A DNA stretch of 64,000 nucleotides from Gemmatimonadales bacterium (GTDB lineage Bacteria > Gemmatimonadota > Gemmatimonadetes > Gemmatimonadales > GWC2-71-9), in contig DASWIX010000079.1 in the NCBI GenBank assembly GCA_036397455.1, forward strand, positions 196,037 to 260,036, written 5' to 3'. The position numbers were made by a program, and so were the translations under genes. The notes under the pieces were generated by a model. That model was given only the letters and a program-made list of their open reading frames with translations, did not search any database and was not told the origin of the DNA. This document shows positions 22,921 through 29,431 of the stretch, one piece after another (the first letter of the stretch is position 1; every line of letters starts with the position of its first letter).

Positions 22921-22930
22921 GCCGGCGGGA

Positions 22931-23542
22931 TCAGCGAAACCGAAAGTCGGGACTGCGACCCTTCAACTGCATCTGCGGCAGCGGGACCACACGCACGAGC
23001 ATGCGGCGGGCGGCGCGCGTGATGAAGCCGGGTCGATGCACCCTGGCGGAATCGCCGCCGGCACCCTTGAGCCAGGCGAATACCTCGTCGACGTCCTCAT
23101 CTGACAGCGTCCGCGCCGATACCACCGCCTCATAGTAGTACGAGCCGGGCTCGTCCGGTTCGAGACCCACGACGTAGACACTGGCAAGGTGTGCGCTCAA
23201 CGCGCGTGGAGTCGGGAGCTCGATCGTCGAATCCGGTTGCTCCACCACAAACACCTCGCGCACCGGATCGTACAGCACCACGTAGTCCCACGCGAAGGTC
23301 CGTACGGTCCGGTCCTTCCAGGAGCGGGACTCGCGCAGCGCCACGCGGTACTCGACGTACAGCGGGAACCCCGATTCCATCGCCCGCGTGACCCGGCCGC
23401 CCGCCAGCAGCGACTGCAGGCTCACCAACGCTTCGGGCACCGCCGCCGCATTGAGTTCGACGGTCACATGGGGCCGATCCTGCGCCCGCGCGACCGCAAC
23501 CGCGGCGCAGCACGTGAACAGGACGGCGGCGCGAATGCGCAA
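22931..23542 (-). CDS. DUF4390-like secreted protein (hypothetical)
   Basis: The start is uncertain. I use TTG 23542 to give the signal-like LRIRAAVLFTCCAAVAVARAQD. The track start at 23692 would overlap the upstream gene. The body (ESGFPLYVEYRVALRESRSW...WDYVVLYDPVREVFVVE...SYYYEAVVSARTL) matches my recollection of the DUF4390 pattern. It lies 5 nt downstream of the OMP gene stop. Confidence 0.5.
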   Translation of the reverse strand: MRIRAAVLFTCCAAVAVARAQDRPHVTVELNAAAVPEALVSLQSLLAGGRVTRAMESGFPLYVEYRVALRESRSWKDRTVRTFAWDYVVLYDPVREVFVVEQPDSTIELPTPRALSAHLASVYVVGLEPDEPGSYYYEAVVSARTLSDEDVDEVFAWLKGAGGDSARVHRPGFITRAARRMLVRVVPLPQMQLKGRSPDFRFR

Positions 23543-23547
23543 CGCGA

Positions 23548-25251
23548 TCAGAACCGCTGATGCAGGCGAAGGCTGAAGCGCACCGGGCCGTCGACGGACA
23601 GCGCCTTGGCCGCGTACACCCCGAAGCTCCCGAACACGATTCCCCCACCGATATCGAATTCGAGATCGCCGGGACCATCGTCTCGCAGCCACGCGGTGCC
23701 GGCGTCCGCGAGTAACACGAGGTCTGGACCGTCAAACCAGAACCAGTCACCCCAGTCCCCATCGAACCAGTCCGCGCGCGTCTCGCGCCGGCGCTCATGG
23801 CGATGACGGCGGTGGTCGAACGCCGACAAGCCGAAGGTGAGGTCACCGCGGTATTCGGCCTGGAACAGCACCATGCGATCACACAATGCCGGGGAGGACA
23901 GGTCGGCAACGCCGTTCTCACACGTGATGGCTCGGAACGGGAATCCCGGCATCGCGCCGGGTCCTCCCAGCGACAGGCGACGTTGCACCGGAAGCGGATC
24001 GTCCCCGATCGTCCCCGCCCCAAGCGCGCGCAGGCGCAGCTGTCCCGACCACCCGATCCGTTCGTACCACCGCAGGTCGATGACCGCACGGTCGTAAACG
24101 TGGTCGGCGGGCAGCGGATCGCGCACGGCCACCGGCAGGACCCGCGGCCGCACGCCATCCCCGATGCCCCGCTCCCACGTGGCGCGCACGTGCAGCCCCG
24201 ATCCGTTGTAGCGGTAGGATTGGCGCGAGTCATACTCGATCGACGCCGAGAGCAGCGTCACGTCGCCTTCGTCCACGGCCGGGTTGGTTCGCCACCGTTC
24301 GTCGTTGCGAAACAGCGTCCACGGATCCCGGGCCGGGATCGACACGTCCTCGTTGCGCGCCACTTCACCGGCGATCGTGAATCCGTCCACCGGCTCGAGC
24401 GCGAGGTAGCCCGCCACACCGCGCCGCAGGAAGTAGTCGCGGTAGTCACGGTGGAACAGGAACGCGCCGAACCCGACCTCATCGTCGTCGAGTTGCCAAT
24501 CTTCGATGGGCGCGACGACGTCGTACGCGCGAGCACCCAGTGTCAGGATGTCATTGCCAAACCGGATGCGGCCGTTCGCCTCGTACCCGAGGCCCGCGCG
24601 GTCGTCACCGAATCCATCGGCGGTCCGGAAGATGGCAACGGCCTGGAACCGGCCGTTCACGTCCCGCCCGCCCCGCGTGATCCGCGGTCCGACGACGAGG
24701 GGCAGTCCTTCGATGCGGTTGTACGTCCCTCCGGTCGACAAGACGATCGACGCGCCGGCCGACGACCCGTAGCGGCGAAACCGCGTCGGCGGCCAGCGTC
24801 GCACCCGTTCCGGCTCCGCTTCGATGACCTCGAGCCGGTCACCCACTCGCCGGATCGCCACGCCCGCACGGTGCGCCTCAACCGATCCGCCGACGCGCGC
24901 ATCGACACTCCGGACCAACCGGCCGCCCACCACCAGGATGTCCCCGCGGACCTCCGCGCCGCGCGCCAGCTCGACGTCCGCGTTCACGGCAACCAGATCA
25001 CCCGCGATCACGCCTTCGACCCGCAGCGGACCATCCAGCACGCCGACGTCATCACGCACGAAACGGTTGGGACCGATGGTGTTCGGTCCGAAAAACCGGG
25101 TGGTCATCCTTCCGTTGAAAACCCATATCGCGCGGCGCGCGGCGCGCACCGGTTCGCTGCCGCGGCGAACGACGACGGTGTCCTGCGCTCGTCCCACCAC
25201 GGCGGTCGCGGCGACCAACAAGCCGGACAGCAGCACGATCCGGGCGGTCAT
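23548..25251 (-). CDS. Outer-membrane beta-barrel protein (surface-antigen/Omp85-like C-terminus) with a bactofilin-like N-terminal region
   Basis: The start is taken at ATG 25251 (MTARIVLLSGLLVAATAVVGRAQD signal peptide). The track ORF extends to 25551. The N-terminal repeats VEGVIAGDLVAVNADVELARGAEVRGDILVVGGRLVRSVDARVGGSVEA resemble polymer-forming (bactofilin/DUF583) beta-helix repeats. The C-terminal half has alternating beta-strand character and ends in an aromatic residue (...FSLRLHQRF), as expected for a BAM substrate. Confidence 0.65.
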   Translation of the reverse strand: MTARIVLLSGLLVAATAVVGRAQDTVVVRRGSEPVRAARRAIWVFNGRMTTRFFGPNTIGPNRFVRDDVGVLDGPLRVEGVIAGDLVAVNADVELARGAEVRGDILVVGGRLVRSVDARVGGSVEAHRAGVAIRRVGDRLEVIEAEPERVRRWPPTRFRRYGSSAGASIVLSTGGTYNRIEGLPLVVGPRITRGGRDVNGRFQAVAIFRTADGFGDDRAGLGYEANGRIRFGNDILTLGARAYDVVAPIEDWQLDDDEVGFGAFLFHRDYRDYFLRRGVAGYLALEPVDGFTIAGEVARNEDVSIPARDPWTLFRNDERWRTNPAVDEGDVTLLSASIEYDSRQSYRYNGSGLHVRATWERGIGDGVRPRVLPVAVRDPLPADHVYDRAVIDLRWYERIGWSGQLRLRALGAGTIGDDPLPVQRRLSLGGPGAMPGFPFRAITCENGVADLSSPALCDRMVLFQAEYRGDLTFGLSAFDHRRHRHERRRETRADWFDGDWGDWFWFDGPDLVLLADAGTAWLRDDGPGDLEFDIGGGIVFGSFGVYAAKALSVDGPVRFSLRLHQRF

Positions 25252-25505
25252 GGCGTGTAGCTCCGCGCGGGCACGACGACGAACACGGTATCCGTCGCCG
25301 AACACCGCGGATCCGGCAATACCGTGGAGCGGCGCCGGAGCGCCACATCGAACACGACGTCGTGACTCAGCACGTTGATTGCATAGGTCATGTGATGCCC
25401 CTGATCTCCTTGCGACGCCGGCCGTGCCGCGGGTCGATCGCGCATCAACACGGGCATCAGCGCGACCACCCCAACCGCCACCACCAACATGGGTCCCAGC
25501 TTCAC
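25248..25505 (-). CDS. Small membrane-anchored hypothetical protein (85 aa)
   Basis: GTG at 25505 sits 8 nt downstream of GGAGG (25518-25514). An alternative ATG is at 25490. One N-terminal TM (MLVVAVGVVALMPVLM). The third codon position is G/C-rich. The stop overlaps the OMP start (ATGA at 25251-25248), which suggests translational coupling. No family recognised. Confidence 0.4.
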   Translation of the reverse strand: MKLGPMLVVAVGVVALMPVLMRDRPAARPASQGDQGHHMTYAINVLSHDVVFDVALRRRSTVLPDPRCSATDTVFVVVPARSYTP

Positions 25506-25539
25506 CGAAGCAGCCTCCGCAAACGTTGCCCGGTGATAA

Positions 25540-25555
25540 GGCAGGACGCATGCCT
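25540..25555 (-). promoter_or_regulatory. Candidate sigma-54 (-24/-12) promoter
   Basis: The minus strand reads cAGGCATgcgtcCTGCc. The GG and GC dinucleotides are at the canonical spacing of TGGCAC-N5-TTGC. The site is about 35-50 nt upstream of the small-ORF start and about 95 nt downstream of the sigma-54 activator gene stop. Confidence 0.35.
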
Positions 25556-25649
25556 GGCGCGCCGCAATGTCCAACCTATTACATCGCAATAAGTTACGAA
25601 CCAAACCCGCCCTATCGATTCGCACACGGACGCGCGTCATTTCGACACG

Positions 25650-27026
25650 TTACGTGTCGTTTCGGTCGATTCCGAGCCGTCGCATGCGGCGATACAGGTT
25701 CGCTCGATCGGTCTCGAGGCGGCGGGCCGCGTCCGCCACGTTGCCGCCGGCCTTGGCGAGGGCGGATCGAATGAGATTCGCCTCGAAGGCGTCGAGCGCG
25801 GAAGCCAACCCCGGCGCCCCATCCGCCTCGGACGGCGAACCCGATTCCGCCGGCCCGGGCGAGCGACCGAGCACGGTATCGACCTCGGCTGCGGAGATGG
25901 GATCGCGCCCACCGATGATCGTGAGCCGTTCGATGAGGTTGGCCAGTTCGCGGACGTTCCCCGGCCATCCATGCTCCTGAAGCCTGGTGAGAGCCGGGCC
26001 AGTGAGCGCCCGCGGCGGCCTGGCACACGTCGCCGCCGCGACCGCCGCGAAGTGCGCGGCCAGGGCCGGCACGTCACTGAGCCGTTCGCGCAGGGCCGGC
26101 ACGCGTATCGGAAAGACGTTCAAGCGGTAGAACAGGTCGGCACGAAATCGTCCGGCGGCGGATGCGCGCTCCAGGTCCCGGTTCGTCGCCGCGACGACGC
26201 GGACGTCGACCGTCCGTTCGTGTTCGGCTCCAACCCGCGCGAACGTTCCCGTCTCGAGCACGCGCAGCAGTTTGGCCTGCGCCCCCTGTTCGAGGTCCCC
26301 GATCTCATCCAGAAACAGCGTGCCGTGGTGCGCCATCTCGAACTTCCCGATCCGGTCGGCGTGGGCGCCGGTGAACGCGCCCCGCTGGTGCCCGAACATC
26401 TCGCTTTCGATGAGGTCGCGTGGCACCGCGGCGCAATTCACCGCCACGAACGGTTTGGCGGCGCGTGGGCTCTGGCGGTGAATGGCGCGCGCCACCAGCT
26501 CCTTGCCGGTTCCCGATTCACCACTGATGAGCACCCGCGACGGCGTGGGGGCCACCCCTGCGATGAGCGAACGCACGTCGGCCATTGGCGGCGCTGAACC
26601 GACGATGGCGTCCTCGGCGGCCGTCTGGGCGCGCAGCGCGCGGTTCTCCGCGCGCACATGCGCCAGTTCGGTCGCCGCGCGCAAAGCCACGAGCACCGAT
26701 TCGGGCGTGAGCGGTTTCTCCAGGAACTGAAACGCGCCAAGCTTGGTGGCGCGGACCGCGTCGTGCAGCGTCGCCTTGCCGCTCATCATGATCACGATCA
26801 ACTCGGGCCGGTCGGTGCGCAGGTGCTCCAGCACCGCGAGCCCGCTGGGGCCCGGCTCCATCACGAGATCCAACAACACGATTTCGGGTTCAAAGCGTTG
26901 GACGGCGCCCGCGACGGCGTGGCCGTCCTCCGCCTCCTGGACCGCATACCCTTCCTGCGCGAGGATCGCCGCCAGCATCTTGCGGATGTTGCGCTCGTCG
27001 TCGACGATCAGCACGCGTGCCGTCAT
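25650..27026 (-). CDS. Sigma-54-dependent response regulator (NtrC/NtrX family)
   Basis: 458 aa. Receiver domain (RVLIVDDERNIRKML...LLDLVM). AAA+ Walker A GESGTGKE. Sigma-54 contact loop GAFTGA (QRGAFTGA). Also FLDEIGDL and a C-terminal Fis-type HTH (NVADAARRLETDRANLYRRMRRLGI). Confidence 0.95.
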   Translation of the reverse strand: MTARVLIVDDERNIRKMLAAILAQEGYAVQEAEDGHAVAGAVQRFEPEIVLLDLVMEPGPSGLAVLEHLRTDRPELIVIMMSGKATLHDAVRATKLGAFQFLEKPLTPESVLVALRAATELAHVRAENRALRAQTAAEDAIVGSAPPMADVRSLIAGVAPTPSRVLISGESGTGKELVARAIHRQSPRAAKPFVAVNCAAVPRDLIESEMFGHQRGAFTGAHADRIGKFEMAHHGTLFLDEIGDLEQGAQAKLLRVLETGTFARVGAEHERTVDVRVVAATNRDLERASAAGRFRADLFYRLNVFPIRVPALRERLSDVPALAAHFAAVAAATCARPPRALTGPALTRLQEHGWPGNVRELANLIERLTIIGGRDPISAAEVDTVLGRSPGPAESGSPSEADGAPGLASALDAFEANLIRSALAKAGGNVADAARRLETDRANLYRRMRRLGIDRNDT

Positions 27027-28222
27027 GCGCCAACCGGAAACTGGATCGTGAATTCGGCGCCGCCGGCGGCGGTTTCGCCGACGACGATGGTTCCGCCGTG
27101 GGCCGACACCGTCTGGCGCACCATGGCCAGACCGAGCCCCGTCCCGAGGTGCTTCGACGTGACGTACGGCTCGAACACCCGGTGGCGATCCTGTTCCGGA
27201 ATCCCGGGGCCGTGATCGCGCACGACGATGCGAACCGCCGTTCCGTCGTCGGCCGGCGCCAGTCCCGACTCGACCTCGATGCCGCGCTGATCGGTGGCGT
27301 CGACGGCGTTCTGTACGACGTTTTGTACCGCGCGCCGGATCGGTTCGTAGCGACCATGGATCGAAAGACCCGGCGTGATGCGCTCGGTCACGGGGCAGCC
27401 CTCGGGCACCGTGGCGCCAATGACGCTCGCCAGCAGCTCCGCCACGTCGATCGGCGCCGCGGGTCCTTCAGGAAGCCGCCCGAACTCCGCAAACTCCTTT
27501 GCCATCCGCTCGAGCCGCTGCGTTTCATCGGCAACGACCTCGATCGCGTGCGATGGCGGCGCGACGGCGGCGAGCTGGCGGATCGCGAGCTGCGTAGCGG
27601 TGAGCGGACCACGCATCTCGTGCGCCACCCGCCGCGCCGTTTCCCGGAACGCGTGCAGCCGCACCTGTTCCAATTCCTGGTGCCGGACCCGGTCGAGCGC
27701 CGCATCCATCTCCCTGAGGGCGTTGCGGAGCGCAGCGAATTCCGGCGCGTGACCGCTCTCCGCGTCGGCCGGGAGGGGCTGGCGGCGTTCGACCAGACGG
27801 ACCCAGCGTACCAGCTCTTCGATGGGCGCCGAGACGTAGCGTGACCAACGCCGCGCCAATCCGAGGGAGGCCGCGATCAACACGACCGCCACGACCAGAA
27901 TCACGAGGCCCAGTGCGCCGGCGGCATAGCGGCTGAGCGTTTCCGCGCGGCGCGCCATCGAGGTTCGACGCGCGATCGTATCGGTATGCGCCCGGATCGC
28001 GTTCCGGCCGGCGGCATCGAGCGCAAGCGTATCGACCGCCGTCATCAGAGCCCTGCCGCTCTCGGCGACCTCATCGAGCGCCGCGCGCGGGCCGGTCGCG
28101 GAGGCGGTCGAACGGACCTGCACCGCCAGCACGAACAGCGCCGCGGCGAGCGGCAGGGTTCCGAGACCGACCAATCCGAGAAACACACGTTGCCGAAACG
28201 CGAGCCGCATCCGTCTAGTCAC
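27023..28222 (-). CDS. Sensor histidine kinase (2 TM, HAMP-like linker, HisKA, HATPase)
   Basis: 399 aa. H-box VAHEMRGPLT. N-box VVQNAVDAT. G1 VRDHGPGIP. G2 GTGLGLAMV. Overlaps the response regulator start (27023-27026) and the upstream M20 gene end. Confidence 0.9.
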   Translation of the reverse strand: MTRRMRLAFRQRVFLGLVGLGTLPLAAALFVLAVQVRSTASATGPRAALDEVAESGRALMTAVDTLALDAAGRNAIRAHTDTIARRTSMARRAETLSRYAAGALGLVILVVAVVLIAASLGLARRWSRYVSAPIEELVRWVRLVERRQPLPADAESGHAPEFAALRNALREMDAALDRVRHQELEQVRLHAFRETARRVAHEMRGPLTATQLAIRQLAAVAPPSHAIEVVADETQRLERMAKEFAEFGRLPEGPAAPIDVAELLASVIGATVPEGCPVTERITPGLSIHGRYEPIRRAVQNVVQNAVDATDQRGIEVESGLAPADDGTAVRIVVRDHGPGIPEQDRHRVFEPYVTSKHLGTGLGLAMVRQTVSAHGGTIVVGETAAGGAEFTIQFPVGA

Positions 28223-29378
28223 GCCCGCAATAGGCGGTCGCCGCCGCCACGAGGATCGCGCTCAGGTTCCGCACGGATTCGAGGTCGACCCATTCCTCGG
28301 CGGCGTGTGCGCCCGCGCCGCTCGCGCCCAGCACGACCGTTTCGATCCCCGCAGCCTGGAGAAAGGCCGCATCCATCCACGGCGTCTGACCGCCGTACGC
28401 GGGCGGCGATCCAAGCACCGCCGTGGCCGCATCGGCGACCGCGCGCACGATGGCGGCATCCTGATCCACGCCAAAAGGATCCCGCCACAACAGCGCGCGC
28501 ACCGCCGCCCTGAAATCCGGATCGACCGCGGCAAGTTGGTGCACCACGTGCTCGATCTCCCGCACGACCTGTTGTTCGGTTTCGCCGGGAATCGTGCGTC
28601 GTTCGATCTCCGCGCGCGAGCGGGCGGCATAGATCGAAGGGCCGGTCCCGCCCGCGAGTAACCCCACGTGCAGCGACGGCGGCCCGACGAGCGGATGGGG
28701 GTCGCGGGCGCGCAGCTCGCGTTCCAGCCCATCGAGCGCGGCGAGAAAGAGCCCCATCCGCATGTTGGCATCGACCCCGAGATCGAACCGGCTGCCATGG
28801 GCGGCGCGCCCGGTCGTCTCGACCTCGACCCAGCAGAACCCCTTGTGCGCCAGACAGATCCCGAGATCCGTGGGCTCGGTGACGATGGCCGCATCGGTGT
28901 GCACGTAGCGCAGCACCTCCTGCATCCCGACGCTCTCCGTCTCCTCGTCGGCGACGGCGACGACGAGCACGTCACCCGCCAGGTCGCGGTCGGCCAGATC
29001 GTGGGCAGCCTGCATGCACGCCGCGAGCCCGCTCTTCATGTCGTACGCGCCGCGTCCGTAGACGCGCCCATCCCGCACCGCGCCCGAAAACGGCTCCGCC
29101 ATCTCCCCAACGCCGACAGTGTCCAGGTGGGCGTACAGCATGAGGCTCTTGCCGGCTCCGGTCCCGGCGCGGCGTCCAACGACGCTCATCCGCCCCGGCT
29201 CCGGCTCGTAACTGGTGACAGCGAGACCGATCCGATCGAGCCATTCCGCCACGAAGGACGCGATCGCCCGTTCGTCGGTTTTGCCGCCGGAGAACGCGGG
29301 ATTGATCGAATTGATCTGCACCAGCTCTGACAGCAATCGCGTGACGCCGTCTGGTGAATCGCTCCGGTGGCTTGCCAT
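28215..29378 (-). CDS. M20-family metallopeptidase (ArgE/DapE/acetylornithine deacetylase-like)
   Basis: ATG 29378 is preceded by AAGGAG. Motifs LMLYAHLDTV, VAVADEETES and GAHAAEEWV are typical of M20 dimetal hydrolases. Substrate unknown. Confidence 0.85.
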   Translation of the reverse strand: MASHRSDSPDGVTRLLSELVQINSINPAFSGGKTDERAIASFVAEWLDRIGLAVTSYEPEPGRMSVVGRRAGTGAGKSLMLYAHLDTVGVGEMAEPFSGAVRDGRVYGRGAYDMKSGLAACMQAAHDLADRDLAGDVLVVAVADEETESVGMQEVLRYVHTDAAIVTEPTDLGICLAHKGFCWVEVETTGRAAHGSRFDLGVDANMRMGLFLAALDGLERELRARDPHPLVGPPSLHVGLLAGGTGPSIYAARSRAEIERRTIPGETEQQVVREIEHVVHQLAAVDPDFRAAVRALLWRDPFGVDQDAAIVRAVADAATAVLGSPPAYGGQTPWMDAAFLQAAGIETVVLGASGAGAHAAEEWVDLESVRNLSAILVAAATAYCGRD

Positions 29379-29431
29379 GTCGGGCTCCTTACATTTCCAT
29401 CCCCTGCCCTGGTTCAATCCACGAGAAGGCG

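Follow-up and report, generated by a model that had tools for sequence, protein, structure and literature searches.

Locus information

A 64,000-nucleotide stretch of contig DASWIX010000079.1 (the window; G+C content about 67 %) was analyzed from a soil-type Gemmatimonadales metagenome-assembled genome of 3.9 Mb, which consists of 90 contigs and is 89.8 % complete. The minus strand of the window carries a cassette of four conserved genes that encode a sensor histidine kinase, an NtrC-family response regulator (the activator), an outer-membrane protein (OMP) with an Omp85-type barrel, and a periplasmic protein of the DUF4390 family, and in the sub-clade of the window a fifth, small gene stands before the OMP gene. 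The synteny of the cassette is obligate in its relatives, and we propose, with about even confidence, that it is an envelope-spanning signaling module with feedback. The features of the cassette are shown in Table 1.

Gene order, coordinates and junctions had been given in an earlier inspection of the window made without database searches (the sequence-only reading), and all were confirmed from the list of open reading frames (ORFs) and by direct reading of the strand. Kinase and activator genes share 4 nt, the small ORF and the OMP gene share an ATGA overlap (25248-25251), and a gap of 5 nt separates the OMP gene from the DUF4390 gene, which starts with TTG. Upstream, a gene for an M20 peptidase overlaps the kinase gene by 8 nt. 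Only 10 nt (22921-22930) separate the end of the DUF4390 gene from that of the convergent polX gene, so that there is no room for separate terminators.

Table 1 Genes and control elements of the cassette, with the peptidase gene upstream
Feature	Position in window	Strand	Basis
Sensor histidine kinase, 399 aa	27023..28222	-	Pfam HisKA and HATPase_c
NtrC-family sigma-54 enhancer-binding response regulator, 458 aa	25650..27026	-	PF00072, PF00158, PF25601, PF02954
Half-sites, probable upstream activator sequence	25634..25658	-	Sequence reading and conservation
Non-coding gap, activator to small ORF	25506..25649	-	ORF list and direct strand reading
IHF-like core	25572..25581	-	Conserved block in aligned loci
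Predicted sigma-54 (-24/-12) promoter	25541..25555	-	Exact GG-N10-GC spacing
Small exported or membrane-anchored protein, 85 aa	25248..25505	-	ORF with GGAGG; equivalents in relatives
Outer-membrane protein (OMP), 567 aa	23548..25251	-	AlphaFold2, Foldseek, Pfam of relatives
Periplasmic DUF4390 (PlrP-like) protein, 203 aa	22931..23542	-	PF14334
M20/M25/M40 peptidase	28215..29417	-	Pfam PF01546 and PF07687

Conservation of the cassette

The cassette was compared across 80 species-level loci, all from Gemmatimonadota, with each count including only the loci with enough flank, and across a sample of 201 genomes of the phylum, 123 of which have a strong OMP match. At the species-level loci the activator gene lies upstream of the OMP gene in 69/69 cases, the kinase gene upstream in 60/60, and the DUF4390 gene downstream in 76/76; the order kinase, activator, OMP, DUF4390 is kept in all 20 of 20 relatives from three families. 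All 95 Pfam DUF4390 genes in the 201-genome sample (95/95) are within 1 kb of an OMP gene, and by both counts (76/76 and 95/95) the DUF4390 gene is within 5 kb of genes for a histidine kinase and an NtrC-family regulator. The synteny spans at least eight families, with flanking genes that differ between genomes. The M20 peptidase gene, which the sequence-only reading had listed ahead of the kinase and activator genes, is found upstream of the kinase gene only in a same-genus genome and is a neighbor confined to this genus, not a conserved member.

In distant relatives, those with an OMP at most 40 % identical, the activator gene mostly shares 4 nt with the OMP gene or is 2-3 nt away from it, so the four genes form one operon; a few distant relatives have a spacer of 50-120 nt with a CGGCAC-N6-TGCA site. 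Four relatives without the OMP are also without an orthologous activator, the best match being 46-48 % identical compared with 53-65 % for orthologues. This is the level of a paralogue, so the activator was counted as lost together with the OMP, although missing assembly is possible in these genomes.

The obligate synteny, the 4-nt overlaps in many relatives and the joint gene loss give strong backing to a conserved functional link, as had been suspected from the window by itself. That the genes are neighbors by shared ancestry alone, with no functional link, is hardly credible: all the loci come from one phylum, so that the counts are not independent, but the synteny persists in eight or more families despite changing flanks, neighboring genes overlap at their start and stop codons and have been lost jointly, and an independent association of DUF4390 with a two-component system exists in Proteobacteria.

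The DUF4390 protein and its relatives in Proteobacteria

The product of the last gene of the cassette matches PF14334 with 27.0-27.5 bits against a cut-off of 27, over profile positions 32-96 only. The same family is annotated on nearly all of 179 homologues, which their sources name 'DUF4390 domain-containing protein', and among 68 relatives that are far more distant (19-35 % identity) 53 match it (best E = 2e-12); the earlier DUF4390 call on this gene is thus upheld at the level of the family. In looking for DUF4390 neighborhoods of phyla other than Proteobacteria and Gemmatimonadota, the search for representatives gave 440 clusters, and the profile-seeded homologue search gave only further copies of the same cassette. 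With 203 residues and a signal peptide, judged by eye, that ends ARA-QD, the protein has the size of about 200 aa and the export signal of DUF4390/PlrP proteins, and its hydrophobic N-terminus is conserved in the alignment. The public gene call starts at an internal GTG and gives a product of 178 aa, from which the signal peptide is lost (window 23468-23542); the TTG start at 23542 agrees better with the homologue alignment. The predicted structure (predicted local distance difference test, pLDDT, 82.5) is an immunoglobulin-like sandwich with helices, for which a PDB search returned only generic sandwiches of this type, none better than E = 0.008 and a template modeling (TM) score of 0.25.

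In Bordetella the DUF4390 protein PlrP is a periplasmic, genetically defined third component of the PlrSR system (Wolber et al., J Bacteriol 2026, PMC13001219), and probably restrains the phosphatase activity of the NtrYX-family kinase PlrS via its PDC domain (PMC13001219). The plrP gene is no more than 5 kb from the kinase gene in 437 of 441 genomes, in a distribution analysis of Proteobacteria (PMC13001219). The association of DUF4390 genes with ntrYX in Betaproteobacteria, which the sequence-only reading had mentioned, is real and published (PMC13001219). The remark of that reading that the family has no known function has been overtaken by the definition of PlrP as part of PlrSR, which in 2026 gave the partnership of DUF4390 with a kinase its first function (PMC13001219).

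Like PlrP-PlrS-PlrR, the cassette combines genes for a membrane histidine kinase and an NtrC-family regulator with a gene, no more than 5 kb away, for a DUF4390 protein that has about 200 residues and a signal peptide, and in both systems the linkage is obligate across many genomes. The two systems differ in several respects. The DUF4390 gene closes the cassette, while plrP of Bordetella stands before the kinase gene; an Omp85-type OMP is always encoded beside the DUF4390 gene of the cassette and never in Proteobacteria; the kinase of the cassette has no PDC or PAS domain and only two transmembrane segments; its regulator has a GAFTGA motif and an identifiable, predicted sigma-54 promoter; rsmB is unlinked, and the PF14334 score is marginal (27 bits). 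The partnership of DUF4390 with a two-component system is thus known from Proteobacteria. No paper on a bactofilin combined with Omp85, on this OMP or on the cassette was found in the literature.

Sensor kinase and activator

The kinase has a first transmembrane segment at about residues 13-35, a periplasmic loop of 63 residues, a second transmembrane segment at about 99-121, a HAMP-like linker, the H-box AHEMRGPLT and an ATPase domain. Pfam gave no HAMP match at E ≤ 0.1 and no match to PAS, PDC or Cache domains; a weak HAMP match was obtained for one distant kinase homologue. The loop is moderately conserved (0.61-0.76 among 59 orthologues) and is too small for a PDC or Cache domain, so that the kinase is without the PDC domain of the PlrP systems. 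The best NCBIfam models are AtoS and ZraS, with scores far under their cut-offs.

The activator has a REC domain, an AAA+ domain with GAFTGA (PF00158, 235 bits, E = 5e-70), an AAA_lid_14 domain and a Fis-type helix-turn-helix (HTH_8), the composition of a sigma-54 enhancer-binding regulator of the NtrC family, and the genome encodes rpoN and 12 activator genes. The recognition helix of the helix-turn-helix, TDRANLYRRMRRLG, is kept in all activator orthologues and is identical in both types of activator/OMP junction. Against the NtrC model the activator scores 433 bits and against the NtrX model (NF051870) 409 bits, both under the cut-off, which is 600 for NtrX; it is the second-best NtrX-like protein of the genome, the best (443 bits) being encoded elsewhere. 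The kinase, with only two transmembrane segments, departs from the NtrY architecture, which has an N-terminus with several transmembrane segments, a periplasmic domain, HAMP, PAS, HisKA and HATPase. As judged by architecture and model score, the pair are not members of NtrY/NtrX. Of the first description as a HAMP histidine kinase and an NtrC/NtrX-type activator, the histidine kinase and the NtrC family hold, while the HAMP domain by Pfam and the NtrX assignment by model do not.

In another family, the kinase and activator genes are separated by genes for three small, paralogous single-pass membrane proteins of 97, 94 and 194 aa (locus L133, 2537-3697). They have the common motif RLxRIEQAIDAIAIEVERxSEGQRF and no Pfam match.

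Sigma-54 control region

The 145-nt gap downstream of the activator gene is, from the elements it contains, a predicted sigma-54 control region, and its layout is kept in relatives. A spacer of 135-500 nt with a fixed arrangement separates the activator and OMP genes in a second family and in the 28 loci of the window's sub-clade, where the OMP is at least 44 % identical; in this arrangement GACAC-N4/5-GTGTC-N5-GACAC over the activator stop is followed by CAA-N4-TTA and then by GG(C/T)AC-N5-TGC. In the window, the half-sites GACAC-N5-GTGTC-N5-GACGC straddle the TAA stop of the activator gene (25658-25634). Of the 28 long-spacer loci, most have the palindrome GTGTC-N5-GACAC, with at most one mismatch, where the activator gene stops, as do loci of the second family, and the half-site consensus of the relatives is GACAC...cGTGTC.aA.TGACACg. 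Between the half-sites and the promoter, the window has the core TAATAGGTTG and the relatives CAA-N4-TTA; in 22 aligned loci a block 'Aa.a..Tta' is kept about 20 nt upstream of the -24 element. The resemblance of this core to the WATCAANNNNTTR consensus suggests a site for IHF. The predicted promoter, AGGCATGCGTCCTGC, has GG at 25554-25553 and GC at 25542-25541 in GG-N10-GC spacing, and its equivalent in relatives, with the consensus GGcACg...c.TGC, is conserved in the 22 aligned loci, where it lies 81-94 nt downstream of the palindrome (mostly 90-93; 93 nt in the window). The conserved GG-N10-GC upstream of the genes, together with the presence of rpoN in the genome, points to a sigma-54 promoter.

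At NtrC-type promoters such as glnAp2 and nifH, the dyad sites of a GAFTGA activator lie some 100 bp upstream of a GG-N10-GC element, and there is a bend site of IHF type. The predicted control region has the same layout, but its half-sites are GTGTC-N5-GACAC and reach into the gene of the activator itself at its 3' end.

Several other candidate sites were set aside. Autoregulation through a sigma-54 promoter upstream of the kinase gene found no support in 58 loci at a score of at least 9, apart from two poor matches. The genome has 84 palindromes with at most one mismatch, three of them perfect, and the sole credible pairing of half-sites with a promoter in the genome is at the present locus, the candidate C67 being inside coding DNA. 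Repeats of ATTGCG were rejected as activator sites, since they are not conserved and the GACAC/GTGTC half-sites are.

In three genomes of the second family, half-sites and a sigma-54 promoter recur 16-19 kb from the cassette (L138 1500-1900 (G026), L137 (G034) and L139 (G032)), and this recurrent site also straddles the stop codon of its upstream gene. It is followed in the two aligned genomes by a conserved ORF of 49 aa with an acidic tail (MTTAVLAANEPVGIVIRDGG...WFWANEEEANDEEEWRERT) and by a hairpin with a T-run. From its sequence the site is likely a second target of the activator; no homologue of the 49-aa ORF was found in the genome of the window. The activator-OMP spacer of another relative (L033, G018) is about 550 nt long and full of tandem units of about 23 nt (GACGCCGGGGTGACGGCAATGTG), with no palindrome or promoter there.

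Small gene of the sub-clade

The small ORF starts with GTG, with GGAGG 7 nt before it. Its product has an N-terminal hydrophobic segment, a hairpin motif 'h-L-G/S-H/Y-x-L-x-V' and a C-terminal strand DTVFVVV, and no match in Pfam or NCBIfam. In 24 of the 28 loci with a long spacer, equivalent ORFs of 29-115 aa, the stop codons of which overlap the OMP start, lie between promoter and OMP gene; they have the hydrophobic N-terminal segment and the hairpin motif in common, and their core can be aligned across loci. Further equivalents are present on several metagenomic contigs, where gene callers also called them. The gene is absent from the short-spacer loci and from the greater part of the phylum. 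It is a genuine fifth gene that evolves fast and is limited to one lineage, the sub-clade of the window. The idea that it is a degenerate copy of the 5' end of the OMP gene was dropped because longer homologues carry the conserved motif of their own.

The C-terminal strand DTVFVVV (GTLVFVV and DTLIVAS in relatives) resembles the mature N-terminus of the OMP, QDTVVVRR, with the consensus AQDTVxVxR (window 25248-25300 and 25170-25190), and competition of the two for a single docking site is conceivable. In the close relative L043 (about 370-450) a tandem duplication of about 40 nt shifts the frame of the small ORF, which the near-identical contig L044 apparently reads through; the duplication is either an assembly artefact or a real frameshift.

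Outer-membrane protein

The signal peptide of the OMP, as judged by eye, ends (A)QD. An AlphaFold2 model based on an alignment of 38 relatives (pLDDT 75; predicted TM score, pTM, 0.62) predicts a helix at residues 34-45, a beta-helix at 51-142 (window 24826-25101) with a period of 17-19 residues and a pLDDT of about 90, a disordered linker at 145-161 and a 16-strand barrel of Omp85 type at 164-563 (window 23563-24762). The top 50 Foldseek matches in the PDB are all Omp85 proteins (at the top Toc75, BamA, TamA and Sam50; E from 6e-9, TM score up to 0.66 on the target), with BamA, TamA and Toc75 ranked above TpsB transporters and CdiB at rank 46; the BamA-RcsF structure 6t1w is among the matches. 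In Pfam searches the window OMP gave no match at E ≤ 0.01, none to Bactofilin (PF04519) at E ≤ 0.1 and none to PF01103, whereas 26/38 relatives match Bactofilin (best E = 4e-7) and 17/38 match Omp85 (PF01103). The two families that the sequence-only reading had named for the OMP are thus recovered in the relatives and not in the window OMP itself. The match to the ShlB/FhaC family has E = 0.057 for the window OMP and E ≤ 0.01 in 3/38 relatives.

No POTRA match was found in the OMP, and the model places a beta-helix at residues 51-142. The bactofilin-like character that had been suspected for the N-terminus therefore finds support in the model and in the 26/38 relatives that match Bactofilin; the domain is neither POTRA nor disordered. 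A sequence link to solved bactofilins is not significant (a profile search against bactofilin 2n3d gave E = 4.7), and hhalign against the genome's own bactofilin gave a probability of 44 %. Since these direct links are weak, the domain is termed bactofilin-like and is not claimed as a proven member. Bactofilins are cytoplasmic, polymer-forming scaffolds, while the domain in the OMP should be periplasmic because a signal peptide precedes it and an outer-membrane barrel follows it. Elsewhere the genome encodes eight ordinary Omp85 proteins and two ordinary bactofilins.

The OMP shares with the Omp85 superfamily (BamA, TamA, Toc75, Sam50, TpsB and 'noNterm' Omp85; PMC4104836) the predicted 16-strand barrel, an L6-type GG...G(F/Y) motif, a C-terminal aromatic residue (here F) and an N-terminal extension into the periplasm. 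It differs from them in having a bactofilin-like beta-helix of about 90 residues and no POTRA, of which the BamA, TamA and TpsB classes have at least one, in the replacement of the L6 arginine (MPGF instead of VRGF; family consensus SLGGPxPMPG(F/Y)xFR, with proline at the arginine position), and in the place of its gene inside a two-component operon. Two cysteines are invariant. Neither bactofilin nor Gemmatimonadetes appears in a survey of ten Omp85 sub-families (Heinz and Lithgow 2014, PMC4104836). In one relative (L041) the barrel begins directly after the signal peptide, and in four genomes (G095, G097, G111 and G202) the OMP ORFs are much longer, at 909-987 aa, with a different N-terminal region.

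These properties bear on a serious rival, if a rather unlikely one, according to which the cassette is a pure output operon: the two-component system would respond to some other signal, with the three exported products as its effector and no feedback on the kinase, the OMP being a specialized insertase or translocase of Omp85 type and DUF4390 a periplasmic chaperone or adaptor. The barrel does match BamA, TamA, Toc75 and Sam50, the OMP could be a specialized machine beside the eight other Omp85 paralogues of the genome, and in the sub-clade the half-sites and predicted promoter stand directly upstream of the three genes, as the sole such site in the genome. Yet the VRGF motif typical of active Omp85 insertases is replaced by MPGF and the POTRA domains that handle substrates are absent. 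Most relatives, moreover, have a 4-nt OMP/activator overlap and no internal promoter, and co-expression with the regulator is unusual for a pure target, and a signaling role of DUF4390 is genetically supported elsewhere (PMC13001219).

It is improbable that the barrel works like a two-partner-secretion (TPS) transporter that exports DUF4390 or the small protein to the surface, with the beta-helix in place of POTRA as the dock. The genes for transporter and candidate cargo lie next to each other and are coupled in translation, the ShlB/FhaC similarity mentioned above exists although it is weak, and there is the likeness between the C-terminal strand of the small protein and the start of the mature OMP. 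Neither candidate cargo, however, has a TPS domain, Foldseek places BamA, TamA and Toc75 above TpsB, with CdiB only at rank 46, most of the phylum has no such small protein, and the DUF4390 proteins of Proteobacteria act in the periplasm without a dedicated barrel (PMC13001219).

Proposed mechanism

For the envelope-spanning module with feedback, the following course may be envisaged, of which the contacts between proteins and the direction of signaling are what we infer. The kinase would phosphorylate the activator, as their pairing in the operon suggests, and the activator would bind the GACAC/GTGTC half-sites over its own stop codon and, helped by an IHF-type bend, drive the putative sigma-54 promoter at 25555-25541. 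From this promoter the small protein, the OMP and the DUF4390 protein would be transcribed as one translationally coupled unit, as their junctions and comparative conservation indicate. All three products carry export signals and would place the barrel in the outer membrane and the beta-helix and DUF4390 in the periplasm. The DUF4390 protein would then act back on the kinase and set its balance of kinase and phosphatase activity, by analogy with PlrP and PlrS of Bordetella, and the OMP may be the outer-membrane partner that tethers or gates DUF4390, through which the state of the outer membrane would reach the kinase. Through the sigma-54 promoter the accessory parts would be output and feedback arm at once, a double role that cpxP, mgrB and liaF also have. 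Perhaps the rod of the OMP and the small protein also act back on the kinase.

A signaling role is favored because of the one-operon layout in most relatives, the joint loss, the tiny sensor loop and the precedent of PlrP. Several observations count against it. The kinase is without PDC, the domain through which PlrP is proposed to act, and the pair is not NtrYX, so the analogy with PlrP may not transfer. A dedicated sigma-54 promoter before the OMP and DUF4390 genes is equally expected of a pure output operon. In five genomes without the internal promoter the palindrome occurs in 0-2 copies per genome, the same as a reversed-pattern control. Some lineages (G031, G035, G079 and G186) keep the cassette with an OMP that is a barrel only, of about 480 aa, and as the beta-helix is lost or swapped in some lineages the rod is dispensable or replaceable. 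Omp85 proteins, finally, are known as insertases and translocases and not as sensors.

Other two-component systems with accessory proteins are WalKR-YycHI, MtrAB-LpqB, LiaFSR, CpxAR-CpxP and PhoQP-MgrB, in which envelope proteins encoded in or next to the operon modulate kinases with a small sensor domain; CpxP, MgrB and LiaF are also targets of their own regulator and so provide feedback. The cassette likewise encodes envelope proteins together with a kinase of small sensor domain. To our knowledge, none of these five systems uses an Omp85 barrel or DUF4390, and none uses sigma-54. In the Rcs system, the genes of which are scattered, the lipoprotein RcsF is threaded through outer-membrane proteins by BamA. 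An outer-membrane barrel with a small periplasm-facing partner there relays the state of the outer membrane to an inner-membrane phosphorelay, a relay that for the cassette is only proposed; there is no sequence relationship, RcsF is a lipoprotein, and the Rcs genes are scattered, unlike those of the cassette.

A tentative and rather doubtful extension of the feedback module is that an Omp85 barrel was recruited as an outer-membrane sensing arm, so that the barrel with its rod, DUF4390 and the kinase would be a physical relay across the envelope.

Conclusions

The locus defines a sub-family of Omp85 proteins that has a beta-helix instead of POTRA domains, and shows the partnership of DUF4390 with a kinase fixed in a phylum distant from Proteobacteria, with a PDC-less kinase and an obligatory outer-membrane partner. 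The cassette is thereby a second, simpler system for asking what DUF4390 binds. The sequence suffices to predict the compact control region in full, with its activator sites, IHF-like site and -24/-12 promoter, and the region could be rebuilt as a reporter in a laboratory strain. If the doubtful physical relay across the envelope is real, the OMP would be the first Omp85 protein devoted to signaling and not to protein insertion or translocation, and DUF4390/PlrP would be an ancient adaptor for such kinases in distant phyla.

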